From: Escherichia coli
Lineage (GTDB): Bacteria; Pseudomonadota; Gammaproteobacteria; Enterobacterales; Enterobacteriaceae
Assembly: GCF_003334405.1 (NCBI RefSeq)
Contig: NZ_QOWM01000003.1
DNA: 64,000 bases
Strand: one strand, 5' to 3'
A program made the position numbers and the translations under genes. Below, in pieces: positions 30,680 through 52,800 of the stretch (position 1 is the stretch's first letter; each line of letters opens with the position of its first letter). Below the pieces are notes generated by a model. That model did not search any database. It was given only the letters and a program-made list of their open reading frames with translations, and was not told the origin of the DNA.

Positions 30680-30850
30680 TAGCAAAACCGCAATATCGGG
30701 ATAACGCTACAGGAGAAGGCGATTGATCTATTTTCCTGAAACAAGGTGAATATTCAAAAACTCCTGTCAAATTGCCTTTTGCCCTGAAAAATGCATAGTC
30801 AAATATCTGTTTTAACTAATTGGCGTTGCAGTACATGCAACGCCAATTAG

Positions 30851-31756
30851 TTAGCGGAATTTACGTCGATACTCGCCTGGCGTCATCCCAAAGCGTTGCT
30901 TAAATACCGTTGAAAAATGACTCTGGTCAGAAAATCCCCAATGAAAGCCGATGCCTGCCAGTTTTTCATCATCTGCGGCATGGCGAATCGCATCTGCACA
31001 AAAATCGAGACGACGGTTACGAATATATTGCGCGACTACCAAACCTTTATCGGCAAACATTCGGTACAAACTACGTACTGACATACCTGTCTCTCCGGCT
31101 ATCCACTCCGGGCGTAATATCTCTTCGCGAATATTATCGTCTATCAACGTAACCACTTTTTGAAACTGACGTTCACGACGAGGTTGAACAGATTCCCGCT
31201 GATGAAGTACCGGGCGCAGCAGACACACCATCGCCTGTAGCGCAGCTTCACTTTCTGTTTCAGAAAGTGCCGGATTATTCATGCTCTCCTGTAACAGGCG
31301 ATGACTGAGTTGCACCATGGGTAAGTCAGCGTCCAGTCTTTCTGCGCAGACAGGTTTTTGATGGGGAAAATATTGTTCCAGCAGAGTGCGTGGCAAAAGT
31401 AATGAAATCTGTTTAGAAGACTCCTGCCAGTAAAGCGAACAGGGGCGTGAGGCATCGAGTAACGTAATATCGCCAGCGCCAATCTGCACCTGACGCTCAT
31501 CCTGCTCCATTATTGCCTGACCACTAAGCTGAAAAACGGTGTAAAACCAGGCATCGTCGCTGCCTTTTACTTCCTGCCAGGTGCGGGATAAATTCACCCC
31601 GCTGGTTGTCACGGTACTCAGCTTTAGTCCTTTGGCAAAATGCGTGTCCAGTACACCCGTGTAACGCTCAGTCAGCAGGCGTCCGGTAAAATTTCCGCAT
31701 ACCTGATTGATTTGGGAAAGCCATTGCTGAAACTCATTATCCACTGCGGGGTTCAT
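30851..31756 (-). CDS. feaR: AraC-family activator of tynA/feaB
   Basis: 301 aa with C-terminal AraC-type HTH. Confidence 0.9.
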   Translation of the reverse strand: MNPAVDNEFQQWLSQINQVCGNFTGRLLTERYTGVLDTHFAKGLKLSTVTTSGVNLSRTWQEVKGSDDAWFYTVFQLSGQAIMEQDERQVQIGAGDITLLDASRPCSLYWQESSKQISLLLPRTLLEQYFPHQKPVCAERLDADLPMVQLSHRLLQESMNNPALSETESEAALQAMVCLLRPVLHQRESVQPRRERQFQKVVTLIDDNIREEILRPEWIAGETGMSVRSLYRMFADKGLVVAQYIRNRRLDFCADAIRHAADDEKLAGIGFHWGFSDQSHFSTVFKQRFGMTPGEYRRKFR

Positions 31757-33491: not shown

Positions 33492-33548
33492 TCTGGTTCG
33501 CTCATAAGTAAAAAACGGCACCTGGTGCCGTTTTTTTGTCTGAAACAA

Positions 33549-36069: not shown

Positions 36070-38115
36070 TTAATCGACAAAATCACCGTGCTGCCTGGCC
36101 ACCAGCGTCAGAATTGAATACAGCGCCACCGGGGTTTGATGCTGATTGAATACCTCTACAGCCCATTCCACCACACCTGTTGGTTTTTCTTCTGCGCTAC
36201 GCTGTTTTTTCAGCGTCTTGCGCTTACAGGTGAGACGCACCTGGATGGTATCGCCTGGCTTTACGGGTTCGATAAAACGCAAGCTTTCCAGCCCGTAGTT
36301 AGCAATGACCGGACCGACACCGGCATCGACAAACAGACCCGCAGCCGCAGAAAGCACAAAATACCCATGCACCACCCGCTCACCGAAAATAGATTCGGCA
36401 GCAGCAATCTTATCCATATGTGCATAGAAATGATCGCCGCTGAGGCAAGCAAAGTTAACAATATCGGCCTCTGTCATTGTGCGGCGGGGAGTCAACAGGC
36501 TGTCGCCTGGTTGTAGCTCCTCAAAATATTTGCGGAACGGATGAATACGATCTTCTTCGACTTTCGCACCGCGCACCCACTGTTTACTGATAGCGGCAAG
36601 CATCGTCGGACTACCCTGAACAGCGGTTCGCTGCATGTAATGTTTCACCGCTCGTAAACCGCCTAATTCTTCACCGCCTCCTGCGCGACCAGGCCCACCA
36701 TGTACCAGTTGTGGCAGTGGGGAGCCATGCCCGGTGGATTCTTTTGCCGACTCTTCATTGAGGATCTGAATTCGCCCATGCGTACGTGCCGCGTCGGCAA
36801 TAAACTGACGCGCAATTTGCGGATCAGCCGTCACCAGCGTTCCCGCAAGGCTACCGCCGCCTGCACAAGCCAGTTGCAGAGCATGTCGCTGGTTTTGTGC
36901 TGGCATCAGCGTTGCGACAGGGCCAAAGGCTTCTGTTGCATGTACCGCCGGTGTTTCATCCGGCTGCGGACAGTACAATAAGGTTGGCGGGAAGAAGGCA
37001 CCCGCAGCAGATAAATCCGCCTGACCACCGAGGCGAATCTCGCATCCTGCAGCCAGCAATATGTTCACTTTTTCCTGCACATCGGCACGCTGCTCAGCAT
37101 TTACCAGTGCGCCCATTTTCACGCCTTCCTGAGCAGGATCACCGACCACGACTTTCTGTAATCGCGCAACCAGAGCATCACTGACAGCATTAACCAATGC
37201 CTGCGGCACAATAATCCGCCGGATTGCCGTACATTTTTGCCCGGCTTTTGTGGTCATCTCACGCACAACTTCACGAATAAACAGCGCAAACTCCGGTTGA
37301 TCCGGGGTGACATCTTCGCCCAGTACGCAGCAGTTCAGGGAATCAGCTTCCATAGTGAAGGGGATAGATTTGGCGACGATATTTGGCTGAACTCGCAGCA
37401 TCTGTCCGGTCGCCGCTGACCCCGTGAAAGTCACCACATCCTGGCTGTCCAGATGATCCAACAAGTCGCCAGCACTACCGCAGATCAGACTAATTGCGCC
37501 TTCGGGAACAAGACCACTATCGACAATTGATTTCACCATCGCCTGAGTCAGTTGGGCCGTCGCGGTAGCTGGTTTGATGATGGCTGGCATTCCGCCCAGC
37601 CACGTTGGTGCCAGCTTTTCCAGCATTCCCCAGCAGGGGAAGTTAAAGGCGTTAATATGCACTGCCACGCCTGACTTTGAGGTCAGTAAATGGCGCGCGG
37701 CAAATCCACCTTCTTTCGATAAGGGGATCAATTCATCTTCCGGCCACAGCGTATCGTCAGGCAGCTCCCGGCTACCGAGGCTGGCGTAAGTAAATAACGT
37801 CCCAATGCCACCTTCAATATCAACCCAACTGTCTGCCCGCGTTGCGCCTGTTTGCGCAGAAAGAGCATAGAAACGCTCTTTTTCACTCAGCAGATGTTTA
37901 GCGACCGCTTTAAGCATCGCCGCACGTTCGATAAAGGTCATAGCGCGAAGGGCGGGGGCACCTTTTTCAATGGCAAACTGGCGGGCAGCCGCCATATCAA
38001 GACCTTCACTGGTCACTTCCCATAACGCCTCGCCGCTAATAGCGTGGTGAATCAAACGGCTACGGCCCCGGCCAGACTGCCAGGTACCGGATAAGAAACT
38101 GGCTAACTGCTGCAT
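36070..38115 (-). CDS. paaZ: bifunctional oxepin-CoA hydrolase / 3-oxo-5,6-dehydrosuberyl-CoA semialdehyde dehydrogenase
   Basis: 681 aa; N-terminal aldehyde dehydrogenase plus C-terminal hot-dog hydratase domain; divergent from paaA. Confidence 0.95.
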
Positions 38116-38399
38116 CGCTACTCTCCAGATGTTTCACATTTCTGTTGCTAATAGTTAAATCGCGAATCATAAAAAGCAAGGGATCTTTTAACGAAATGTT
38201 AACTATGCGATCTGTATAGCAACTGCGGAAAACATTAATGCACTGATAAACAATGATTTATAAAAATAGGGTGCGAAATCCGTCACAGTTCAAACATACA
38301 AAATTTGTGATTTTACTTAACTATTGTGTAACTTTCATAAAACAATGTGATTCGTGTTTTTAATTAATTCACGAAAACTGGAATCGTAAAGGTGATGAC

Positions 38400-39329
38400 G
38401 TGACCCAAGAAGAACGCTTTGAGCAACGGATAGCCCAGGAAACGGCTATCGAGCCACAGGACTGGATGCCCGATGCTTACCGAAAGACATTGATCCGCCA
38501 GATTGGGCAGCATGCGCACTCCGAGATTGTTGGTATGTTGCCTGAAGGTAACTGGATCACTCGCGCACCAACCTTGCGGCGTAAAGCCATTCTGTTGGCC
38601 AAAGTGCAGGATGAAGCCGGTCATGGTCTGTATCTCTATAGCGCCGCCGAAACACTGGGCTGCGCCAGAGAAGACATCTACCAAAAAATGCTCGACGGAC
38701 GGATGAAATATTCCTCCATCTTTAATTATCCGACATTGAGTTGGGCTGATATCGGTGTTATCGGCTGGCTGGTGGATGGCGCAGCGATCGTCAATCAGGT
38801 GGCGTTATGCCGCACTTCTTATGGCCCGTATGCCAGAGCAATGGTGAAAATCTGCAAAGAAGAGAGTTTTCACCAGCGTCAGGGGTTTGAAGCCTGCATG
38901 GCACTGGCGCAGGGCAGCGAAGCTCAAAAGCAGATGTTGCAAGACGCCATTAACCGTTTCTGGTGGCCAGCCTTAATGATGTTCGGGCCAAACGATGATA
39001 ACTCGCCAAACAGCGCCAGAAGTCTCACCTGGAAAATCAAACGTTTCACCAACGACGAACTCCGCCAGCGTTTCGTGGATAACACCGTTCCACAGGTTGA
39101 AATGCTCGGTATGACCGTTCCTGACCCGGATCTGCATTTTGACACTGAAAGCGGTCACTACCGCTTTGGTGAGATCGACTGGCAGGAGTTTAACGAAGTA
39201 ATTAACGGTCGCGGAATTTGTAATCAGGAGAGGCTCGACGCCAAACGTAAAGCCTGGGAAGAAGGTACCTGGGTACGGGAAGCAGCGCTGGCCCATGCAC
39301 AAAAACAACATGCCCGTAAGGTCGCATAA
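38400..39329 (+). CDS. paaA: 1,2-phenylacetyl-CoA epoxidase subunit A
   Basis: 309 aa, GTG start; first gene of a colinear paaABCDEFGHIJK operon. Confidence 0.95.
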
Positions 39330-39340
39330 GGAGATTCAAA

Positions 39341-39628
39341 ATGAGTAATGTTTACTGGCCGTTATACGAAGTTTTCGTGCGTGGCAAACAGGGCTTATCA
39401 CACCGCCATGTTGGCAGTTTACATGCTGCCGATGAGCGGATGGCACTGGAAAATGCCCGTGATGCTTACACCCGTCGTAGCGAAGGATGTTCAATTTGGG
39501 TGGTGAAGGCGAGTGAAATTGTTGCCTCGCAACCGGAAGAACGCGGTGAATTTTTTGATCCGGCTGAAAGCAAGGTCTATCGCCATCCAACGTTTTACAC
39601 CATCCCTGATGGCATTGAGCACATGTGA
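39341..39628 (+). CDS. paaB: 1,2-phenylacetyl-CoA epoxidase subunit B
   Basis: 95 aa; operon position. Confidence 0.95.
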   Translation: MSNVYWPLYEVFVRGKQGLSHRHVGSLHAADERMALENARDAYTRRSEGCSIWVVKASEIVASQPEERGEFFDPAESKVYRHPTFYTIPDGIEHM

Positions 39629-39636
39629 GGTCGGAA

Positions 39637-40383
39637 ATGAATCAGTTAACGGCTTACACCTTGCGCCTGGGCGATAACTGCCTGGTGCTCTCCCAGCGGT
39701 TGGGTGAATGGTGCGGTCACGCACCGGAACTGGAAATCGATCTCGCACTGGCAAACATTGGCCTCGATTTATTAGGTCAGGCACGCAACTTCTTATCGTA
39801 TGCCGCTGAATTAGCGGGAGAAGGCGATGAAGATACCCTGGCCTTCACCCGAGACGAGCGCCAGTTCAGCAACTTATTGTTGGTTGAACAACCAAACGGC
39901 AATTTTGCCGACACCATTGCACGCCAGTATTTCATCGATGCATGGCATGTGGCGCTCTTTACCCGTCTGATGGAAAGCCGTGATCCGCAACTGGCGGCGA
40001 TTTCTGCCAAAGCAATTAAAGAAGCGCGCTATCACCTGCGTTTTAGTCGTGGCTGGCTGGAGCGACTGGGCAATGGTACTGACGTATCAGGGCAAAAGAT
40101 GCAGCAGGCCATCAACAAGTTGTGGCGTTTTACCGCCGAACTGTTCGATGCCGACGAGATTGATATTGCACTGAGTGAAGAGGGTATTGCGGTTGATCCA
40201 CGCACTTTACGCGCAGCGTGGGAAGCCGAAGTTTTTGCCGGGATCAACGAAGCCACATTGAACGTACCGCAAGAGCAGGCGTATCGCACTGGCGGTAAAA
40301 AAGGACTGCATACCGAACACCTTGGACCCATGCTGGCAGAAATGCAGTATCTCCAGCGTGTCTTGCCCGGTCAGCAATGGTAA
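39637..40383 (+). CDS. paaC: 1,2-phenylacetyl-CoA epoxidase subunit C
   Basis: 248 aa from Met MNQLTAY; operon position. Confidence 0.9.
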   Translation: MNQLTAYTLRLGDNCLVLSQRLGEWCGHAPELEIDLALANIGLDLLGQARNFLSYAAELAGEGDEDTLAFTRDERQFSNLLLVEQPNGNFADTIARQYFIDAWHVALFTRLMESRDPQLAAISAKAIKEARYHLRFSRGWLERLGNGTDVSGQKMQQAINKLWRFTAELFDADEIDIALSEEGIAVDPRTLRAAWEAEVFAGINEATLNVPQEQAYRTGGKKGLHTEHLGPMLAEMQYLQRVLPGQQW

Positions 40384-40397
40384 CAGAGGAGATGGGT

Positions 40398-40895
40398 ATG
40401 CAACGTCTGGCCACCATTGCACCGCCACAGGTTCATGAGATATGGGCGCTACTCAGCCAGATCCCGGACCCGGAGATCCCGGTGCTGACCATTACTGATT
40501 TAGGCATGGTGCGTAATGTGACACAGATGGGAGAAGGATGGGTGATCGGCTTTACGCCGACATATTCCGGTTGTCCGGCAACGGAACATTTGATTGGCGC
40601 GATACGTGAGGCAATGACAACCAACGGGTTTACCCCCGTTCAGGTTGTGCTGCGACTCGACCCGGCATGGACCACCGACTGGATGACCCCCGATGCCCGT
40701 GAGCGTCTGCGAGAGTATGGCATTAGCCCGCCCGCCGGACACAGTTGCCATGCCCATTTGCCGCCAGAAGTACGTTGCCCGCGCTGCGCCAGCGTCCATA
40801 CCACACTTATCAGTGAATTTGGTTCCACGGCCTGCAAAGCATTGTACCGCTGCGATAGTTGCCGCGAACCTTTCGATTATTTCAAATGTATTTGA
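40398..40895 (+). CDS. paaD: phenylacetate degradation protein PaaD
   Basis: 165 aa from Met MQRLATIAPP; operon position. Confidence 0.9.
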   Translation: MQRLATIAPPQVHEIWALLSQIPDPEIPVLTITDLGMVRNVTQMGEGWVIGFTPTYSGCPATEHLIGAIREAMTTNGFTPVQVVLRLDPAWTTDWMTPDARERLREYGISPPAGHSCHAHLPPEVRCPRCASVHTTLISEFGSTACKALYRCDSCREPFDYFKCI

Positions 40896-40902
40896 GGATG
40901 CC

Positions 40903-41973
40903 ATGACAACGTTTCATTCCTTAACAGTGGCAAAAGTCGAGTCGGAAACCCGTGATGCGGTGACCATTACCTTTGCGGTGCCCCAGCCTTTGCAGGAGGC
41001 GTATCGCTTTCGCCCCGGTCAACATTTGACCTTAAAAGCCAGCTTTGATGGTGAAGAATTACGCCGTTGTTACTCCATTTGCCGCAGCTATCTGCCTGGC
41101 GAAATTAGTGTGGCGGTGAAAGCCATTGAAGGCGGACGTTTCTCCCGCTATGCCCGCGAACACATCCGCCAGGGTATGACGCTGGAGGTCATGGTGCCGC
41201 AGGGGCATTTCGGCTATCAGCCGCAGGCCGAACGCCAGGGGCGCTATCTGGCAATTGCAGCAGGATCAGGTATTACGCCAATGCTGGCGATTATCGCCAC
41301 CACTTTACAAACCGAGCCTGAAAGTCAGTTCACCCTGATCTACGGTAACCGTACCAGCCAGAGCATGATGTTTCGCCAGGCACTGGCAGACCTGAAAGAC
41401 AAATATCCTCAGCGTTTACAGTTGTTGTGCATTTTCAGTCAGGAAACCCTCGACAGCGATCTGCTTCACGGGCGTATTGACGGTGAAAAATTACAGTCAC
41501 TTGGGGCCTCGCTCATTAATTTTCGTCTTTATGATGAGGCATTTATTTGTGGTCCGGCGGCGATGATGGATGACGCGGAAACCGCCTTAAAAGCACTGGG
41601 AATGCCAGATAAAACCATTCATCTGGAGCGGTTTAATACGCCTGGCACGCGCGTCAAACGTAGCGTTAACGTGCAAAGTGACGGACAAAAAGTGACTGTA
41701 CGTCAGGATGGGCGGGATCGGGAAATCGTGCTTAATGCCGACGATGAAAGCATTCTCGATGCGGCATTGCGCCAGGGGGCGGATCTGCCCTATGCCTGCA
41801 AAGGCGGCGTCTGTGCGACCTGCAAATGCAAAGTGCTGCGTGGCAAAGTGGCGATGGAAACCAATTACAGTCTGGAACCGGATGAACTGGCCGCAGGTTA
41901 TGTGTTGAGTTGCCAGGCACTGCCGCTGACCAGCGATGTGGTGGTTGACTTTGACGCGAAGGGGATGGCATGA
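40903..41973 (+). CDS. paaE: 1,2-phenylacetyl-CoA epoxidase reductase subunit
   Basis: 356 aa from MTTFHSLTVAK; C-terminal 2Fe-2S ferredoxin Cys motif (CKGGVCATCKC). ORF track starts 70 codons upstream inside paaD. Confidence 0.9.
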   Translation: MTTFHSLTVAKVESETRDAVTITFAVPQPLQEAYRFRPGQHLTLKASFDGEELRRCYSICRSYLPGEISVAVKAIEGGRFSRYAREHIRQGMTLEVMVPQGHFGYQPQAERQGRYLAIAAGSGITPMLAIIATTLQTEPESQFTLIYGNRTSQSMMFRQALADLKDKYPQRLQLLCIFSQETLDSDLLHGRIDGEKLQSLGASLINFRLYDEAFICGPAAMMDDAETALKALGMPDKTIHLERFNTPGTRVKRSVNVQSDGQKVTVRQDGRDREIVLNADDESILDAALRQGADLPYACKGGVCATCKCKVLRGKVAMETNYSLEPDELAAGYVLSCQALPLTSDVVVDFDAKGMA

Positions 41974-42737
41974 GCGAACTGATCGTCAGCCGTCAGCAAC
42001 GAGTATTGTTGCTGACCCTTAACCGTCCCGCCGCACGTAATGCGCTAAATAATGCCCTGCTGATGCAACTGGTAAATGAACTGGAAGCTGCGGCTACCGA
42101 TACCAGCATTTCGGTCTGTGTGATTACCGGTAATGCACGCTTTTTTGCCGCTGGGGCCGATCTCAACGAAATGGCAGAAAAAGATCTCGCGGCCACCTTA
42201 AACGATACACGTCCGCAGCTATGGGCGCGATTGCAGGCCTTTAATAAACCACTTATCGCAGCCGTCAATGGTTACGCGCTTGGGGCGGGTTGCGAACTGG
42301 CATTGTTGTGCGATGTGGTGGTTGCCGGAGAGAACGCGCGTTTTGGGTTGCCGGAAATCACTCTCGGCATCATGCCTGGCGCAGGCGGAACGCAACGTTT
42401 AATCCGTAGTGTCGGTAAATCGTTAGCCAGCAAAATGGTGCTGAGCGGAGAAAGTATCACCGCTCAGCAAGCACAGCAGGCCGGGCTGGTTAGCGACGTC
42501 TTCCCCAGCGATTTAACCCTCGAATACGCCTTACAGCTGGCATCGAAAATGGCACGTCACTCGCCGCTGGCCTTACAAGCGGCAAAGCAAGCGCTGCGCC
42601 AGTCGCAGGAAGTGGCTTTGCAAGCCGGACTTGCCCAGGAGCGACAGTTATTCACCTTGCTGGCGGCAACAGAAGATCGTCATGAAGGCATCTCCGCTTT
42701 CTTACAAAAACGCACGCCCGACTTTAAAGGACGCTAA
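41970..42737 (+). CDS. paaF: 2,3-dehydroadipyl-CoA hydratase
   Basis: 255 aa enoyl-CoA hydratase/crotonase fold. Confidence 0.95.
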   Translation: MSELIVSRQQRVLLLTLNRPAARNALNNALLMQLVNELEAAATDTSISVCVITGNARFFAAGADLNEMAEKDLAATLNDTRPQLWARLQAFNKPLIAAVNGYALGAGCELALLCDVVVAGENARFGLPEITLGIMPGAGGTQRLIRSVGKSLASKMVLSGESITAQQAQQAGLVSDVFPSDLTLEYALQLASKMARHSPLALQAAKQALRQSQEVALQAGLAQERQLFTLLAATEDRHEGISAFLQKRTPDFKGR

Positions 42738-43525
42738 TGATGGAATTCATCCTCAGTCATGTAGAAAAGGGCGTGATGACACTAACGCTCAACCGCCCGG
42801 AACGCCTGAACAGTTTTAATGATGAGATGCACGCACAACTGGCAGAGTGCCTGAAACAGGTCGAGCGCGACGACACTATCCGTTGCCTGTTACTTACAGG
42901 TGCCGGGCGCGGATTTTGTGCTGGTCAGGATCTTAACGATCGTAACGTTGATCCCACAGGCCCCGCACCGGATTTAGGGATGTCAGTTGAACGTTTCTAT
43001 AACCCACTGGTACGTCGCCTGGCAAAACTGCCAAAACCGGTGATCTGTGCAGTCAATGGCGTGGCGGCAGGGGCAGGCGCAACACTGGCACTGGGGGGCG
43101 ACATCGTTATTGCTGCCCGTTCAGCAAAATTCGTCATGGCGTTTAGTAAGTTAGGCTTAATACCCGATTGCGGTGGAACCTGGTTACTGCCACGCGTTGC
43201 CGGACGAGCGCGCGCCATGGGGCTGGCACTGCTGGGGAATCAACTGAGTGCTGAACAGGCGCACGAATGGGGGATGATCTGGCAGGTTGTTGATGATGAA
43301 ACGCTGGCAGATACCGCGCAACAGCTGGCACGGCATCTGGCGACACAACCGACATTTGGTCTTGGACTTATCAAGCAAGCGATAAATAGCGCTGAAACCA
43401 ATACGCTCGATACGCAACTGGATCTGGAACGTGACTATCAGCGACTTGCCGGACGGAGCGCAGATTATCGTGAAGGTGTCAGTGCGTTCCTGGCTAAACG
43501 CTCACCGCAGTTCACGGGGAAATAG
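42737..43525 (+). CDS. paaG: 1,2-epoxyphenylacetyl-CoA isomerase
   Basis: 262 aa crotonase-family. Confidence 0.95.
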   Translation: MMEFILSHVEKGVMTLTLNRPERLNSFNDEMHAQLAECLKQVERDDTIRCLLLTGAGRGFCAGQDLNDRNVDPTGPAPDLGMSVERFYNPLVRRLAKLPKPVICAVNGVAAGAGATLALGGDIVIAARSAKFVMAFSKLGLIPDCGGTWLLPRVAGRARAMGLALLGNQLSAEQAHEWGMIWQVVDDETLADTAQQLARHLATQPTFGLGLIKQAINSAETNTLDTQLDLERDYQRLAGRSADYREGVSAFLAKRSPQFTGK

Positions 43526-43526
43526 C

Positions 43527-44954
43527 ATGATGATAAATGTGCAAACTGTGGCAGTGATTGGGAGCGGCACCATGGGGGCAGGCATTGCTGAAGTTGCTGC
43601 CAGTCATGGACACCAGGTTTTACTGTATGACATTTCTGCTGAAGCGCTGACCCGCGCAATCGACGGGATACACGCGCGGCTAAATTCACGCGTGACGCGG
43701 GGAAAACTGACTGCTGAAACCTGTGAACGCACATTGAAACGCCTGATCCCGGTGACCGATATTCACGCGCTGGCAGCTGCGGACCTGGTCATTGAAGCGG
43801 CGTCTGAACGTCTGGAAGTCAAAAAAGCGCTCTTTGCACAGCTGGCGGAAGTTTGCCCGCCACAAACGCTATTGACCACTAACACTTCGTCAATCTCTAT
43901 AACCGCGATTGCTGCGGAGATAAAAAATCCTGAACGTGTTGCGGGGCTGCATTTTTTTAACCCGGCACCGGTGATGAAGTTGGTGGAGGTGGTCAGTGGG
44001 CTGGCAACGGCGGCGGAAGTTGTTGAGCAGTTGTGTGAACTAACGTTGAGTTGGGGTAAGCAGCCTGTGCGCTGTCATTCGACTCCTGGATTTATCGTTA
44101 ACCGTGTTGCGCGTCCTTATTATTCCGAGGCCTGGCGGGCACTGGAAGAGCAGGTTGCTGCACCAGAAGTGATTGACGCTGCACTTCGCGATGGCGCTGG
44201 TTTCCCGATGGGGCCGCTGGAATTAACCGATCTGATTGGTCAGGACGTCAATTTTGCTGTCACCTGTTCGGTGTTTAACGCTTTCTGGCAGGAGCGTCGT
44301 TTTTTACCTTCGCTGGTGCAACAGGAACTGGTGATTGGTGGACGGTTGGGCAAGAAAAGTGGGCTGGGCGTGTACGACTGGCGCGCGGAACGTGAGGCAG
44401 TTGTTGGCCTGGAAGCGGTAAGCGACAGTTTTAGCCCAATGAAAGTAGAAAAGAAAAGTGACGGTGTCACGGAAATTGACGATGTTTTATTGATTGAGAC
44501 ACAAGGCGAGACGGCACAGGCGCTGGCAATACGACTGGCACGCCCGGTGGTAGTGATCGATAAAATGGCGGGCAAGGTGGTGACCATTGCTGCTGCAGCG
44601 GTGAACCCGGACTCAGCGACCCGCAAGGCCATTTATTACCTGCAACAGCAGGGCAAAACAGTGCTGCAAATTGCAGATTACCCAGGAATGCTGATTTGGC
44701 GAACGGTAGCAATGATCATCAATGAAGCCCTTGATGCGCTTCAAAAAGGCGTGGCCTCTGAACAGGATATCGATACCGCCATGCGTCTTGGGGTGAATTA
44801 TCCATATGGCCCACTTGCCTGGGGAGCGCAACTTGGCTGGCAGCGAATATTAAGGCTCCTTGAAAATCTACAGCATCACTATGGCGAAGAACGCTATCGC
44901 CCATGTTCATTGCTGCGCCAACGGGCGCTTCTGGAGAGCGGTTATGAGTCATAA
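43527..44954 (+). CDS. paaH: 3-hydroxyadipyl-CoA dehydrogenase
   Basis: 475 aa from MMINVQTVAVIGSGTMG (NAD-binding GxGxxG); ORF track starts upstream inside paaG. Confidence 0.9.
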   Translation: MMINVQTVAVIGSGTMGAGIAEVAASHGHQVLLYDISAEALTRAIDGIHARLNSRVTRGKLTAETCERTLKRLIPVTDIHALAAADLVIEAASERLEVKKALFAQLAEVCPPQTLLTTNTSSISITAIAAEIKNPERVAGLHFFNPAPVMKLVEVVSGLATAAEVVEQLCELTLSWGKQPVRCHSTPGFIVNRVARPYYSEAWRALEEQVAAPEVIDAALRDGAGFPMGPLELTDLIGQDVNFAVTCSVFNAFWQERRFLPSLVQQELVIGGRLGKKSGLGVYDWRAEREAVVGLEAVSDSFSPMKVEKKSDGVTEIDDVLLIETQGETAQALAIRLARPVVVIDKMAGKVVTIAAAAVNPDSATRKAIYYLQQQGKTVLQIADYPGMLIWRTVAMIINEALDALQKGVASEQDIDTAMRLGVNYPYGPLAWGAQLGWQRILRLLENLQHHYGEERYRPCSLLRQRALLESGYES

Positions 44955-45366
44955 GGCCTGGCAAAATGCCCATGCAATGTATGAGAACGATGCCTGCGCC
45001 AAAGCGCTTGGCATCGACATTATCTCAATGGATGAAGGCTTTGCTGTAGTGACCATGACCGTCACTGCACAAATGCTTAACGGTCATCAAAGTTGCCACG
45101 GCGGGCAGCTATTTTCACTGGCTGATACTGCCTTTGCCTACGCCTGCAATAGCCAGGGGCTGGCAGCCGTCGCTTCTGCCTGCACGATTGATTTTTTGCG
45201 TCCAGGCTTTGCCGGAGACACCTTAACTGCTACTGCGCAGGTACGTCATCAGGGCAAGCAAACCGGTGTTTACGACATCGAAATTGTTAACCAACAACAA
45301 AAAACGGTTGCGCTGTTTCGCGGTAAATCTCACCGCATCGGCGGCACCATTACAGGAGAAGCCTGA
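44944..45366 (+). CDS. paaI: acyl-CoA thioesterase (hot-dog fold)
   Basis: 140 aa from MSHKAWQ; overlaps paaH end by 11 nt. Confidence 0.9.
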   Translation: MSHKAWQNAHAMYENDACAKALGIDIISMDEGFAVVTMTVTAQMLNGHQSCHGGQLFSLADTAFAYACNSQGLAAVASACTIDFLRPGFAGDTLTATAQVRHQGKQTGVYDIEIVNQQQKTVALFRGKSHRIGGTITGEA

Positions 45367-46571
45367 TGCGTGAAGCCTTTATTTGTGACGGAATTCGTAC
45401 GCCAATTGGTCGCTACGGCGGGGCATTATCAAGTGTTCGGGCTGATGATCTGGCTGCTATCCCTTTGCGGGAACTGCTGGTGCGAAACCCGCGTCTCGAT
45501 GCGGAGTGTATCGATGATGTGATCCTCGGCTGTGCTAATCAGGCGGGAGAAGATAACCGTAACGTAGCCCGGATGGCGACTTTACTGGCGGGGCTGCCGC
45601 AGAGTGTTTCCGGCACAACCATTAACCGCTTGTGTGGTTCCGGGCTGGACGCACTGGGGTTTGCCGCACGGGCGATTAAAGCGGGCGATGGCGATTTGCT
45701 GATCGCCGGTGGCGTGGAGTCAATGTCACGGGCACCGTTTGTTATGGGCAAGGCAGCCAGTGCATTTTCTCGTCAGGCTGAGATGTTCGATACCACTATT
45801 GGCTGGCGATTTGTGAACCCGCTCATGGCTCAGCAATTTGGAACTGACAGCATGCCGGAAACGGCAGAGAATGTAGCTGAACTGTTAAAAATCTCACGAG
45901 AAGATCAAGATAGTTTTGCGCTACGCAGTCAGCAACGTACGGCAAAAGCGCAATCCTCAGGCATTCTGGCTGAGGAGATTGTTCCGGTTGTGTTGAAAAA
46001 CAAGAAAGGTGTTGTAACAGAAATACAACATGATGAGCATCTGCGCCCGGAAACGACGCTGGAACAGTTACGTGGGTTAAAAGCACCATTTCGTGCCAAT
46101 GGGGTGATTACCGCAGGCAATGCTTCCGGGGTGAATGACGGAGCCGCTGCGTTGATTATTGCCAGTGAACAGATGGCAGCAGCGCAAGGACTGACACCGC
46201 GGGCGCGTATCGTAGCCATGGCAACCGCCGGGGTGGAACCGCGCCTGATGGGGCTTGGTCCGGTGCCTGCAACTCGCCGGGTGCTGGAACGCGCAGGGCT
46301 GAGTATTCACGATATGGACGTGATTGAACTGAACGAAGCGTTCGCGGCCCAGGCGTTGGGTGTACTACGCGAATTGGGGCTGCCTGATGATGCCCCACAT
46401 GTTAACCCCAACGGAGGCGCTATCGCCTTAGGCCATCCGTTGGGAATGAGTGGTGCCCGCCTGGCACTGGCTGCCAGCCATGAGCTGCATCGGCGTAACG
46501 GTCGTTACGCATTGTGCACCATGTGCATCGGTGTCGGTCAGGGCATCGCCATGATTCTGGAGCGTGTTTGA
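45366..46571 (+). CDS. paaJ: 3-oxoadipyl-CoA / 3-oxo-5,6-dehydrosuberyl-CoA thiolase
   Basis: 401 aa thiolase with active-site Cys (NRLCGSG). Confidence 0.95.
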
Positions 46572-46597
46572 GCATATCAACCTGCGAGTACCCTACA

Positions 46598-47911
46598 ATG
46601 ATAACCAATACAAAGCTTGACCCGATTGAAACCGCGTCTGTTGATGAGTTACAGGCGTTGCAAACACAGCGTCTGAAATGGACGCTCAAACACGCGTATG
46701 AAAATGTGCCGATGTATCGGCGCAAATTCGACGCAGCAGGCGTACATCCTGATGATTTCAGGGAACTTTCAGACCTGCGTAAATTTCCCTGTACCACCAA
46801 ACAGGATCTGCGCGACAACTATCCCTTTGACACCTTTGCCGTGCCAATGGAACAAGTGGTGCGCATTCATGCTTCTTCGGGAACCACAGGTAAACCGACA
46901 GTTGTCGGCTATACGCAAAACGATATTGATAACTGGGCCAATATTGTAGCGCGTTCTTTGCGTGCGGCAGGGGGCTCGCCCAAAGACAAAATTCATGTTG
47001 CCTATGGTTACGGCCTGTTTACTGGTGGGCTGGGTGCGCACTATGGTGCCGAACGTCTGGGCGCTACGGTGATCCCGATGTCTGGCGGGCAGACGGAAAA
47101 ACAAGCGCAACTGATCCGTGATTTTCAACCAGATATGATCATGGTTACGCCATCTTATTGCCTTAACCTGATTGAAGAGCTGGAGCGGCAGTTGGGCGGT
47201 GATGCCAGCGGTTGCTCGCTGCGGGTTGGAGTATTTGGTGCTGAGCCGTGGACACAGGCCATGCGTAAAGAGATTGAGCGTCGCCTGGGGATCACCGCAC
47301 TGGATATTTATGGCCTGTCAGAAGTGATGGGGCCGGGGGTGGCGATGGAGTGTCTGGAAACTACCGACGGCCCAACCATTTGGGAAGATCATTTCTATCC
47401 TGAAATTGTTAATCCTCATGACGGCACACCGCTTGCCGATGGTGAACATGGCGAACTGTTATTCACCACGCTGACCAAAGAAGCATTGCCGGTCATTCGT
47501 TACCGCACGCGTGATTTAACCCGACTGTTACCAGGAACGGCGCGGACTATGCGCCGCATGGATCGCATCAGCGGACGCAGCGATGACATGTTGATTATTC
47601 GCGGTGTAAATGTCTTTCCGTCACAACTGGAAGAAGAGATTGTCAAATTCGAACATTTATCGCCGCATTACCAACTGGAGGTGAACCGCCGGGGGCATCT
47701 TGATTCACTTTCTGTGAAAGTGGAGTTGAAAGAAAGTAGCCTGACATTGACGCATGAGCAGCGTTGCCAGGTATGCCACCAGCTGCGCCATCGGATTAAG
47801 TCGATGGTGGGGATCTCTACCGATGTGATGATCGTTAACTGTGGCAGTATCCCGCGTTCAGAAGGCAAGGCGTGTCGGGTGTTTGATCTGCGCAATATTG
47901 TTGGTGCCTGA
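46598..47911 (+). CDS. paaK: phenylacetate-CoA ligase
   Basis: 437 aa from MITNTKLDP; adenylate-forming enzyme family. Confidence 0.9.
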   Translation: MITNTKLDPIETASVDELQALQTQRLKWTLKHAYENVPMYRRKFDAAGVHPDDFRELSDLRKFPCTTKQDLRDNYPFDTFAVPMEQVVRIHASSGTTGKPTVVGYTQNDIDNWANIVARSLRAAGGSPKDKIHVAYGYGLFTGGLGAHYGAERLGATVIPMSGGQTEKQAQLIRDFQPDMIMVTPSYCLNLIEELERQLGGDASGCSLRVGVFGAEPWTQAMRKEIERRLGITALDIYGLSEVMGPGVAMECLETTDGPTIWEDHFYPEIVNPHDGTPLADGEHGELLFTTLTKEALPVIRYRTRDLTRLLPGTARTMRRMDRISGRSDDMLIIRGVNVFPSQLEEEIVKFEHLSPHYQLEVNRRGHLDSLSVKVELKESSLTLTHEQRCQVCHQLRHRIKSMVGISTDVMIVNCGSIPRSEGKACRVFDLRNIVGA

Positions 47912-48011
47912 CGTATCGTCTGGCCCTGGTGGGGTAAAGCGCCAGGGCCAGAAGTCGATACGACCTGTGCTATGATTCATAAATCACAACAATAACAACA
48001 GACTGAAGCGA

Positions 48012-48962
48012 ATGAGTAAACTTGATACTTTTATCCAACATGCTGTAAACGCTGTTCCGGTCAGTGGCACATCTTTGATCTCCTCTCTGTATGGTGATTC
48101 GCTTTCCCATCGTGGTGGTGAAATCTGGTTGGGTAGTCTGGCTGCTTTGCTGGAAGGGCTGGGATTTGGTGAGCGTTTCGTGCGCACCGCTTTGTTTCGT
48201 CTTAATAAAGAAGGCTGGCTGGATGTTTCCCGCATCGGGCGACGCAGTTTCTATAGCCTCAGTGATAAAGGCTTGCGCCTGACGCGACGGGCAGAAAGTA
48301 AAATTTATCGCGCAGAGCAACCTGCATGGGATGGTAAATGGCTCCTGTTGCTCTCGGAAGGTTTAGATAAATCAACGCTGGCTGATGTCAAAAAGCAGTT
48401 GATCTGGCAAGGTTTTGGCGCACTGGCACCCAGCCTGATGGCATCGCCGTCGCAAAAACTGGCCGATGTACAGACACTTTTGCATGAAGCGGGTGTGGCG
48501 GATAACGTGATTTGTTTTGAAGCGCAAATACCACTGGCGCTTTCTCGCGCAGCACTGCGTGCCAGAGTAGAAGAGTGCTGGCATTTAACTGAACAAAATG
48601 CCATGTACGAAACCTTTATTCAGTCATTCCGCCCGCTGGTGCCGCTTTTAAAAGAGGCGGCAGACGAGTTAACCCCGGAGCGGGCATTTCATATTCAGCT
48701 TTTACTGATCCATTTTTATCGCCGTGTCGTCCTTAAAGACCCATTGTTGCCGGAGGAGTTGCTTCCGGCACACTGGGCAGGGCATACGGCGCGTCAGCTG
48801 TGTATCAACATTTATCAGCGCGTAGCGCCTGCTGCTTTAGCGTTCGTTAGTGAAAAAGGTGAAACCTCGGTCGGTGAACTGCCTGCGCCGGGAAGCCTGT
48901 ATTTTCAACGTTTTGGCGGCTTGAATATTGAACAGGAGGCGTTATGCCAATTTATCAGATAG
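48012..48962 (+). CDS. paaX: paa operon transcriptional repressor
   Basis: 316 aa; operon position. Confidence 0.9.
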
Positions 48963-49534
48963 ACGGTCTGACTCCGGTTGTGCCAGAAGAGAGTTTTGTC
49001 CATCCGACAGCGGTATTGATCGGCGATGTTATTCTCGGCAAGGGCGTTTACGTTGGGCCAAATGCCAGCCTGCGTGGCGATTTTGGTCGTATCGTGGTGA
49101 AAGATGGCGCGAACATTCAGGATAATTGCGTTATGCACGGTTTTCCCGAGCAGGATACTGTTGTAGGAGAAGATGGACATATTGGTCATAGCGCTATCCT
49201 TCACGGCTGCATTATCCGCCGCAATGCATTAGTGGGAATGAACGCGGTAGTGATGGACGGTGCGGTGATTGGCGAGAACAGCATTGTTGGTGCATCCGCA
49301 TTTGTGAAAGCCAAAGCAGAAATGCCAGCTAATTACCTGATTGTCGGCAGCCCGGCGAAAGCGATTCGTGAACTCAGTGAGCAGGAGTTGGCATGGAAAA
49401 AGCAGGGTACGCATGAGTACCAGGTGCTGGTGACACGCTGTAAGCAGACGTTACATCAAGTCGAGCCATTGCGGGAAATTGAACCTGGCAGGAAACGCCT
49501 GGTATTTGATGAGAATCTGCGACCGAAACAGTAA
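48944..49534 (+). CDS. paaY: hexapeptide-repeat thioesterase PaaY
   Basis: 196 aa with left-handed beta-helix hexapeptide repeats; overlaps paaX by 19 nt. Confidence 0.9.
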
Positions 49535-49567
49535 CAGATGTAAAATTATTTTGTCCCTTTAATTATA

Positions 49568-49604
49568 AAGCAGAGTTATGTTTAAGCTCTGCTTTATTTA
49601 TTTG
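49568..49604 (+). terminator. rho-independent terminator after paaY
   Basis: AAAGCAGAG...CTCTGCTTT stem followed by ATTTATTT. Confidence 0.65.
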
Positions 49605-49864
49605 AGTATTAATTCATACCGTTTTTTCATCATATAATTATTTATAATGAGAATGTGGTTTTAATTTGTAATTTATATTATATACACAATTTATATATTT
49701 TATGGTCTTTTTTTATTCACCTGAATTATAATTGTGAATTATAGGAAAGTATGTTTGATTAGATAATAATCTACTGGCAATATTGGATGTCTTCTATGTT
49801 TTAAATAACTAATTGGTCGGGTTAGTGCATCCGGCTTTCTTTATATTCGCCAGAAGGATTTATT

Positions 49865-52800
49865 ATGCAAAGGAAAACTCTATTGTCGGCCTGTATTGCA
49901 TTAGCTCTGAGTGGTCAGGGTTGGGCGGCAGATATCACAGAGGTAGAAACCACCACAGGTGAAAAGAAAAATACCAATGTGACTTGTCCGGCAGACCCAG
50001 GAAAACTCAGTCCGGAAGAGCTTAAACGCTTACCCTCTGAATGCTCTCCTTTAGTCGAACAAAACCTGATGCCATGGCTTTCCACAGGCGCTGCTGCGTT
50101 AATCACGGCCTTAGCCGTAGTGGAACTAAACGACGATGATGATCATCATCATCGCAACAATTCTCCACTCCCACCGACACCCCCTGATGATGAATCAGAC
50201 GACACTCCAGTTCCCCCAACTCCTGGCGGAGATGAGATAATACCGGACGATCCGGATGATACGCCTACACCTCCCAAACCGGTTTCGTTTAATAATGACG
50301 TTATTCTCGATAAAACAGAAAAAACGTTAACTATTCGCGATTCAGTTTTTACTTATACCGAGAATGCTGACGGGACTATATCTCTGCAAGATAGCAATGG
50401 TCGTAAGGCAACGATTAATCTTTGGCAGATTGATGAAGCGAATAACACTGTTGCCCTTGAAGGGGTGAGCGCAGATGGCGCAACGAAGTGGCAATATAAT
50501 CACAACGGTGAGCTTGTTATTACGGGTGATAATGCCACAGTAAACAACAATGGCAAAACCACCGTTGACGGTAAAGATTCCACCGGTACGGAAATCAACG
50601 GTAATAACGGGAAAGTGATTCAGGACGGCGATCTGGATGTCAGCGGCGGCGGTCACGGTATTGATATCACCGGTGACAGCGCGACGGTGGATAACAAGGG
50701 CACCATGACCGTCACCGATCCGGAGTCCATGGGTATCCAGATCGACGGTGACAAGGCCATCGTCAATAACGAAGGCGAGAGCACCATCACCAACGGTGGC
50801 ACCGGCACCCAGATTAATGGTGATGACGCCACGGCAAACAACAACGGCAAAACCACCGTTGACGGCAAGGATTCCACCGGTACGGAAATCAACGGTAATA
50901 ACGGAAAAGTTATTCAGGACGGCGATCTGGATGTCAGCGGCGGCGGTCACGGTATTGATATCACCGGCGACAGCGCAACGGTGGATAACAAGGGCACCAT
51001 GACCGTCACCGATCCGGAGTCCATCGGTATCCAGATTGACGGCGACCAGGCCATCGTCAATAACGAAGGCGAGAGCACTATCACCAATGGCGGCACCGGC
51101 ACTCAGATCAACGGTAACGACGCCACCGCGAATAACAGTGGAAAAACCACTGTTGATGGAAAAGATTCCACGGGTACCAAAATCGCGGGCAATATCGGCA
51201 TTGTAAATCTGGATGGTAGCCTGACTGTTACAGGCGGTGCGCATGGTGTTGAGAACATTGGTGACAACGGCACGGTTAACAACAAAGGAGATATTGTTGT
51301 TTCCGATACTGGATCGATTGGCGTGCTCATCAACGGTGAGGGGGCAACAGTATCCAATACGGGTGATGTTAACGTTAGCAATGAAGCGACAGGGTTCAGC
51401 ATCACAACCAACAGTGGGAAGGTTTCGCTGGCAGGCAGTATGCAGGTTGGCGATTTCTCGACCGGGGTAGATCTTAATGGCAACAATAACAGCGTGACGC
51501 TGGCGGCAAAAGATCTAAAAGTGGTCGGGCAGAAAGCGACGGGCATAAACGTTTCTGGCGATGCGAATACAGTGAATATCACTGGTAACGTTCTGGTTGA
51601 TAAGGATAAAACCGCAGACAATGCGGCGGAATATTTCTTCGATCCATCCGTGGGTATCAACGTTTACGGCAGTGATAATAACGTGACGCTGGATGGAAAG
51701 TTAACTGTTGTATCAGACAGTGAGGTTACTTCTCGTCAGAGTAATTTATTTGATGGCAGCGCAGAGAAAACGTCAGGTCTGGTTGTGATTGGCGATGGCA
51801 ATACCGTTAATATGAATGGTGGACTTGAACTGATTGGAGAGAAAAACGCGCTTGCAGATGGGTCGCAGGTTACTTCCTTGCGCACAGGATATAGTTATAC
51901 CAGCGTTATTGTCGTTAGTGGTGAGTCGTCGGTATATCTGAATGGAGATACGACAATCAGCGGAGAATTCCCTCTGGGGTTTGCCGGGGTTATTCGGGTA
52001 CAGGATAAAGCTTTGCTGGAAATTGGCAGTGGCGCTACGCTAACAATGCAGGATATTGACAGTTTTGAACATCATGGGACAAGAACCCCAGAACTTACTT
52101 ATGCTGATTCCGGTGCGAAAATTGTTAATAAAGGTACTGTTGAAATTCAGAATTTAGGTTTTGCTTTTGTTACTGGTGAAAATACAACAGGTATAAATAG
52201 TGGCACGATCTCGTTATTACAAAATGGTAAAGATCCGGCACCGTCTCCCATTGTTTTACTGGCTACTAACGGAGGGAGCGCCACTAATGCAGGTACGATC
52301 ACAGGTAAAGTGACGGAACAACATAGCGTATTTAACAAGTATTCAACGGGCACATCGAATTCATTTATTTTTAATAACGATGTCAGTAGCATAACAGGGT
52401 TAGTCGCTCAATCGAATAGCACAATTATCAATACTGACAGCGGCATCATTGATTTGTATGGTCGTGGTAGTGTCGGCATGCTTGCTATAGCAGATTCAAC
52501 AGCAGAAAATCAGGGTAAAATTACACTGGATTCTATGTGGGTAGATGCAAATGACACTACCGCAATGCGAGATATAGCTAGCAACAGCGCCATTGACTTC
52601 GGTACAGGTGTGGGAGTTGGTACTGATAGTTATAGTGGTGCAGGGAAAAATGCAACAGCAATTAACCAATTGGGCGGTGTTATAACTATTTATAACGCCG
52701 GCGCAGGTATGGCGGCCTATGGCGCCAGCAATACAGTTATTAACCAGGGGACGATTAACCTCGAAAAAAATGGTAATTATGACGATAGTCTGGCAGCAAA

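Follow-up and report, generated by a model that had tools for sequence, protein, structure and literature searches.

The palindrome between paaK and paaX of Escherichia coli is probably an RNA stem-loop at an operon boundary, next to the PaaX-controlled promoter Px

What does the palindrome that separates paaK from paaX do in Escherichia coli? The 64,000-nt stretch of E. coli chromosome analyzed here (the window) carries the phenylacetate (paa) cluster, in which, according to the literature, paaA-K and paaXY are distinct transcription units. With gene names and coordinates taken from the RefSeq annotation of the identical E. coli record, together with the list of open reading frames, paaZ occupies 36070–38115 on the minus strand and paaA-K 38400–47911 on the plus strand, the last gene of paaABCDEFGHIJK being paaK, which encodes phenylacetate-CoA ligase (46598–47911, plus strand, stop codon TGA at 47909–47911). 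The gene of the GntR-type repressor PaaX follows on the same strand (48012–48962, ATG at 48012), then paaY (48944–49534, plus strand), a 21-codon coding sequence on the minus strand (49638–49703) and an autotransporter gene whose start is at 49865. Between paaK and paaX lies a spacer of 100 nt, which contains a stem-loop. A sequence-only reading of this DNA had proposed that this structure could be the operon terminator, an operator for a dimeric repressor, or both.

The inverted repeat placed between the two genes by this earlier reading is real, and both of its quoted arms were located in the sequence (GTATCGTCTGGCCCTGG at 47913–47929 and CCAGGGCCAGAAGTCGATAC at 47942–47961). The stem-loop extends from 47912 to 47962, can be drawn on both strands, and comprises a 5′ arm (47912–47931), a loop of 8 nt (47932–47939), a 3′ arm (47940–47952), an AGU bulge of 3 nt (47953–47955) and an outer 3′ arm (47956–47962). 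Its stem contains 13 + 7 = 20 pairs, including one G.U, with a perfect core of 11 bp. The stem of 18–20 bp that had been announced straight after the paaK stop codon is thus found as 20 pairs at an offset of 0 nt, the hairpin beginning on the very base that follows TGA; regarding the span given for it (47913–47966), the start holds (47912 if the closing C-G pair is included), and the end was set 5 nt too far, the true end being 47962. Folded as RNA, the plus strand reaches a minimum free energy (MFE) of −38.1 kcal/mol (z = −5.17, with 0 of 200 shuffles equally stable). As the palindrome is nearly perfect, the minus-strand RNA forms a hairpin of almost equal stability (−35.0 kcal/mol, z = −5.41). 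In the 64-kb window, six perfect inverted repeats have arms of 11 bp or more and a loop no longer than 20 nt, versus 0.4 expected from Markov simulations. The longest perfect one is an 18-bp palindrome with a 5-nt loop (TAACTAATTGGCGTTGCA...TGCAACGCCAATTAGTTA, 30813–30853) located at the convergent ydbL/feaR junction, where it overlaps the feaR stop codon.

The remainder of the spacer is occupied by the paaX promoter, Px. Transcription of paaX has been mapped to start at 47983 on the plus strand (Kim et al., 2012; PMC3415461, supplementary file 2: NC_000913.2 position 1461534, 21 reads), leaving a 5′ UTR of 29 nt before the ATG. The extended −10 element TGcTATGAT stands 7 nt upstream of this published start (47968–47976, plus strand; TATGAT at 47971–47976, TG at 47968–47969), with 8 nt between the end of the hairpin and the −10. 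This −10 was ranked in a crude sigma-70 scan, and the −35 region (about 47947–47953) is a weak match located inside the 3′ arm of the hairpin. A consensus promoter scan returned no hits and also missed this real extended −10 promoter; its silence about promoters therefore carries no weight. The overlap of the hairpin with the −35 region is probably incidental, since hairpin and −10 are separated by anything from 0 to more than 30 nt, depending on the genus, and Px relies on its extended −10. Moreover, a pattern scan located a PaaX box, TGATTC-N26-GAAGCG, at 47973–48010 on the plus strand (halves at 47973–47978 and 48005–48010, the right half being degenerate in this allele). The box begins about 10 nt past the hairpin, and a review gives the consensus as TGATTC(N27)GAATCA (PMC9493321). 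The left half of this box overlaps the Px −10, and the position of the box on the −10 and the transcription start explains how PaaX can, as reported, autoregulate Px by blocking RNA polymerase (review, PMC9493321). In the same scan, near-perfect PaaX boxes appeared at 38130 and 38348, between paaZ and paaA, in the region that contains Pz and Pa. The spacer is accordingly laid out as a boundary hairpin (47912–47962) and, directly after it, a compact promoter of the extended −10 type that the PaaX box overlaps (47968–48010).

With this layout, it is extremely unlikely that the palindrome itself serves PaaX, or some other dimeric repressor, as an operator that is bound as duplex DNA and controls Px or read-through. 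Such a role would be in keeping with the dyad symmetry of the repeat, with its overlap of the Px −35 region and with the autoregulation just mentioned; however, no TGATTC/GAATCA half-sites 26–27 bp apart were found within 47912–47962, the nearest match being the proper box at 47973–48010, which covers the −10 and the start site. The GC-rich arms of 11–13 bp with their 12-nt spacer are also unlike the known PaaX sites of the paaZ-paaA region, and other genera conserve PaaX and its box but have unrelated palindromes in place of the hairpin sequence. The operator function proposed for the hairpin thus has to be abandoned: the operator of PaaX is the neighboring element, about 10 bp further downstream. 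The outer arms GTATCG/CGATAC, which bear some resemblance to the PaaX half-sites of Pseudomonas, were rejected as such: their orientation is reversed, they are 37 nt apart and L002, a divergent genome labelled E. coli, has lost the outer stem. As for the genuine Px box, its right half (48005–48010) reads GAAGCG in this window, GAATCG or GAATCA in 8 of the 10 other sampled E. coli-labelled alleles, and GAATCA in most other genera. Judging from these letters, a Px operator two mismatches away from the consensus might weaken PaaX autorepression in this lineage.

The other proposal was that of an operon terminator. The hairpin is the only structure found at the end of the paaA-K unit, and it has the stable GC-rich stem and the short loop of intrinsic terminators, which is the part of the proposal that stands. 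A U-rich tract directly 3′ of the stem is absent on either strand: the stem is followed by ACCTGTGC on the plus strand (2 T in 8 nt) and by TCAGGCAC on the minus strand (1 T in 8 nt). Since neither strand carries a U-tract, the paaK hairpin is not a canonical intrinsic terminator, and alone it should terminate poorly. A consensus scan of 47500–48400 for terminator-like sites returned none. We therefore consider it very improbable that a canonical Rho-independent terminator of paaA-K efficiently releases RNA polymerase here, despite a very stable GC-rich stem placed exactly where the operon ends: the RNA tail ACCUGUGC has only 2 U in 8 nt, a U-tract follows only 2 of the 57 orthologous hairpins considered below, and textbook bidirectional terminators exist in the same window. 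One of them, A6-CGGCACC-TGG-GGTGCCG-T6 (33510–33536), with its A6/T6 flanks, closes the convergent feaB/tynA junction and contrasts with the U-less hairpin of paaK. Another palindrome of the window, an 11-bp perfect one in an AT-rich context (49565–49597), stands between the paaY stop (49534) and the 21-codon coding sequence of the minus strand (49638–49703); it is probably a bidirectional terminator common to paaXY and to this small gene.

We also considered whether the palindrome belongs to a described family. By blastn (word size 11, E up to 10), a 59-nt element containing it was found in 3166 of 5426 complete E. coli genomes, at one place per genome (median 1, maximum 2), only one genome having two copies. 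In all the 3166 E. coli genomes with the locus, the element is at least 80% identical, and in all but one at least 90% identical. Being single-copy in E. coli, it is therefore not a REP, and none of six tested REP core words occurs on either strand of the element; the REP/BIME identity was hence rejected on both dispersed copies and consensus. An Rfam search of 47600–48300 (E up to 10) gave only sub-threshold matches to eukaryotic families, which we took as chance, and the assignment to a described RNA family was likewise dropped.

Published transcriptomes bear directly on this hairpin, whose sequence in the window is identical to that of K-12. Term-seq of MG1655 (Adams et al., 2021; PMC7815308, supplementary file 1) reported two curated minus-strand 3′ ends, classed as antisense to paaK, at U00096.3 positions 1463435 (LB, OD 0.4) and 1463441 (second condition). 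Using the printed 61-nt flanking sequences, with the thrL and sgrS rows for calibration, we mapped them to 47908, 4 nt beyond the stem base on the minus strand, and to 47914, 2 nt within the outer stem. On the antisense strand, the hairpin thus coincides with RNA 3′ ends, the read counts of which are near the apparent floor for the minus strand. On the sense strand, the Term-seq tables of this study contain no 3′ end at the hairpin, the cultures having been grown without phenylacetate induction, and its bicyclomycin table has no paaK or paaX entry. In K-12, the RNase III products captured by p19 include two adjacent sense/antisense duplexes of 21–22 nt spanning 47912–47956 on both strands (Huang et al., 2020; PMC7373196, supplementary file 7), and their antisense reads can be told apart from the facing arm of the hairpin. 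In the gene-level K-12 tables of this work, duplex reads are 111–535 for paaJ and paaK versus 1–20 for paaX and paaY; antisense RNA-seq over paaK exceeds that over paaX several-fold, with the meaning of the columns inferred from the main text; and, with the columns read in the same way, sense RNA-seq of uninduced K-12 is similar for paaK, paaX and paaY, which neither shows nor excludes a block. In uninduced cells, both strands of the hairpin region are hence transcribed, and the hairpin is where some RNAs of the minus strand have their ends. As antisense duplex reads are also present deeper inside paaK, the hairpin does not stop all minus-strand RNA. In the start-site data of Kim et al. (2012; PMC3415461), a minor plus-strand start lies inside paaK at 47749 (position 1461300, 12 reads), with a TGATTC word upstream of it at 47701–47706; a transcript initiated there would carry the hairpin within a 263-nt paaX leader. 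Another internal start is located in paaJ at about 46002.

In light of these data, the reading that we favor, with a probability of roughly 0.6, is that the paaK palindrome is an RNA stem-loop marking the operon boundary, which blocks 3′ exonucleases or weakly terminates transcription and so defines transcript ends on both strands. For the sense strand, we infer that it contributes to 3′-end formation, exonuclease protection and insulation. The hairpin would form after the ribosome has cleared the paaK stop codon and would more probably be a barrier to 3′-to-5′ exonucleases (PNPase, RNase II) than a terminator. After termination or cleavage further downstream, the 3′ end of the paaA-K mRNA would be fixed and stabilized by the hairpin, which may in addition slow RNA polymerase and reduce read-through into paaXY. 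On the minus strand, the hairpin would do likewise for antisense transcripts arriving from the paaX side.

Variation within E. coli was followed in eleven sampled alleles, including that of L002. The 13-bp inner stem is retained in all eleven. Setting L002 aside, three of the five substitutions in the stem are transitions after which a G.U pair can still form on the plus strand (C47912U, A47915G and C47942U), two disrupt a pair (U47919C and U47927G, the allele with the latter having a weakened stem) and two further substitutions fall in the loop. In L002, the outer 7-bp stem is lost and the inner-stem change C47924U keeps a G.U pair on the plus strand; counting this genome, four of five stem transitions favor the sense strand, a tally that alone is not significant. 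Among the sampled alleles, the folding energy of the plus strand is better preserved than that of the minus strand. With L002 excluded, variable sites number 7 in the 51-nt hairpin versus 3 in the downstream 49 nt.

To extend the comparison, 80 paaX loci from different Enterobacterales species were fetched, and the paaK stop and the paaX start were located in 72 of them. The last 45 nt or so of the spacer are conserved, the Px −10 region TGCTATGAT being present in 61 of 72 Enterobacteriaceae loci and an exact TGATTC-N26-GAATCA in 53 of 72, and the 5′ part is hypervariable in both length (60 to more than 1000 nt) and sequence. While PaaX is 73–99% identical across loci, the hairpin sequence turns over to unrelated palindromes. 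All the 57 loci with an intergenic region of at most 200 nt nonetheless have a hairpin of −15 kcal/mol or better. Over 69 distinct loci, the first 80 nt past the paaK stop have a median MFE of −32.6 and a median z of −3.5 (z < −2 in 57 of 69), compared with −22.8 and −1.3 (z < −2 in 26 of 69) for the control, the first 80 nt past the paaY stop (paired Wilcoxon p = 1e-8, a statistic that ignores phylogeny). When whole segments were folded on both strands, with no pre-selection of hairpins, the plus-strand fold was the more stable in 41 of 61 (p = 0.001, again ignoring phylogeny). In Rosenbergiella (L063 and L064), the spacer is 60 nt long and has neither a comparable hairpin nor a recognizable right half of the PaaX box; the boundary architecture is therefore not universal.

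What fills this site in other genera raises another explanation, namely that the hairpin is a neutral palindromic relic: the site would readily admit or retain palindromes of REP, box or MITE type, and what E. coli has there would be one such copy, decayed and without selected function. The paaK-paaX site seems to be a preferred location of palindromic repeats. Classic REP-like units sit there in L067, L042 and L047; in Pseudocitrobacter faecalis (L030:2143-2498), a spacer of 354 nt holds about six tandem copies of a palindromic unit, CCCTCTCCC...GGGAGAGGG, which also expands the spacer in L014, L016, L017, L031, L074 and L076. The names REP-like and box-like for these foreign palindromes are provisional, from visual inspection, and counts of REP 8-mers in the loci were too unspecific to classify them. 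As hairpins are REP-like or tandem in several genera, tolerated insertion has to be weighed as an alternative to selection, and the arrival of unrelated palindromes, REP-type units and tandem arrays at the same spot (L067, L047 and L042, and the six units of L030), as well as the fact that, within E. coli, no other part of the spacer evolves as fast as the hairpin, would be expected of a relic. We nevertheless regard this explanation as unlikely, though less so than the other alternatives: the E. coli element is single-copy and has none of the tested REP consensus words, its inner stem is kept in every sampled allele with most substitutions in the loop or compatible with G.U pairing, and RNA 3′ ends map to the hairpin in vivo.

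The immediate vicinity of the stop codon suggests yet another function, in which the stem-loop would lower PaaK synthesis, the terminating ribosome stalling in front of it with ensuing mRNA cleavage or trans-translation. REPs are described as stabilizing upstream mRNA and, when at most 15 nt from the stop codon, as reducing translation (PMC12306157); according to the summary given there, Liang, Rudd and Deutscher (2015) reported the corresponding mechanism for REPs. With its offset of 0 nt, the paaK hairpin falls within these 15 nt, as do about 47 of the 57 orthologous hairpins in a tally of offsets. However, short spacers make nearness to the stop almost unavoidable and the paaK element is not a REP, and we judge such an effect on PaaK distinctly improbable. 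It would be compatible with the boundary stem-loop.

A last reading starts from the antisense signals. In a crude scan, a minus-strand promoter facing Px is predicted, TTTACT-N17-TGTTAT with an upstream TG (−10 at 47997–47992, start at about 47985), its putative −35 corresponding to codons 2–3 of paaX (AGTAAA). With this start, the minus-strand ends (47908 and 47914) would bound a hairpin RNA about 75 nt long, and read-through from this promoter would yield an antisense RNA enriching paaK and paaJ, relative to paaX and paaY, in duplexes. As the PaaX box spans the putative promoter, PaaX would control sense paaX and antisense paaK from one site. In the p19 capture of K-12, duplex reads are at least 10-fold higher over paaJ/paaK (45366–47911) than over paaX/paaY (48012–49534). 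The asymmetry of duplexes and of antisense RNA-seq suggests that transcription of the minus strand starts in the paaK-paaX spacer or close to it; as for the promoter, what points to it is a crude score together with this same asymmetry. That the hairpin is part of an unannotated antisense RNA made from it is, in our opinion, rather improbable.

Regarding its significance, the operon-boundary stem-loop of paaK is ordinary and leaves current understanding unchallenged. Its practical value lies in the correct annotation of the paaK-paaX spacer: when the paa cluster is engineered or PaaX autoregulation is interpreted, the palindrome is not to be taken as an operator. It also provides an example of an operon boundary at which structure, rather than sequence, is selected or tolerated, a strong U-less hairpin almost always following paaK while its sequence turns over.

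Several known systems can be set beside it. With the PaaX boxes of the Pa, Pz, Px and pac promoters, the hairpin shares its dyad symmetry and its placement between paaK and paaX, but it differs from them in sequence, spacing and base composition alike, the genuine box being its neighbor at 47973–48010. Like the REP/BIME elements of enterobacteria, it is an extragenic GC-rich palindrome directly 3′ of a gene, at a site where other genera have REP-like units; unlike them, it is present in a single copy per E. coli genome and lacks the REP consensus. It resembles intrinsic terminators as a GC-rich hairpin closing a transcription unit and departs from them by having no U-tract on either strand. 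Finally, Dar and Sorek (2018; PMC6061677) described precise 3′ ends just past stable U-less stem-loops in Rho-dependent or processed transcripts, these stem-loops protecting against PNPase and RNase II. The paaK hairpin differs from this class in having, on the sense strand, a promoter and a translated gene within 50 nt, which leaves little room for Rho loading. Over the 80 nt past the stem, the sequence is richer in C than in G in both directions (C/G ratios of 1.45 on the plus strand and 1.62 on the minus strand, around the 90th percentile of the window). The hairpin shares with the class a stable stem with no U-rich sequence after it and, on the minus strand only, an in vivo 3′ end at or just beyond the stem base.
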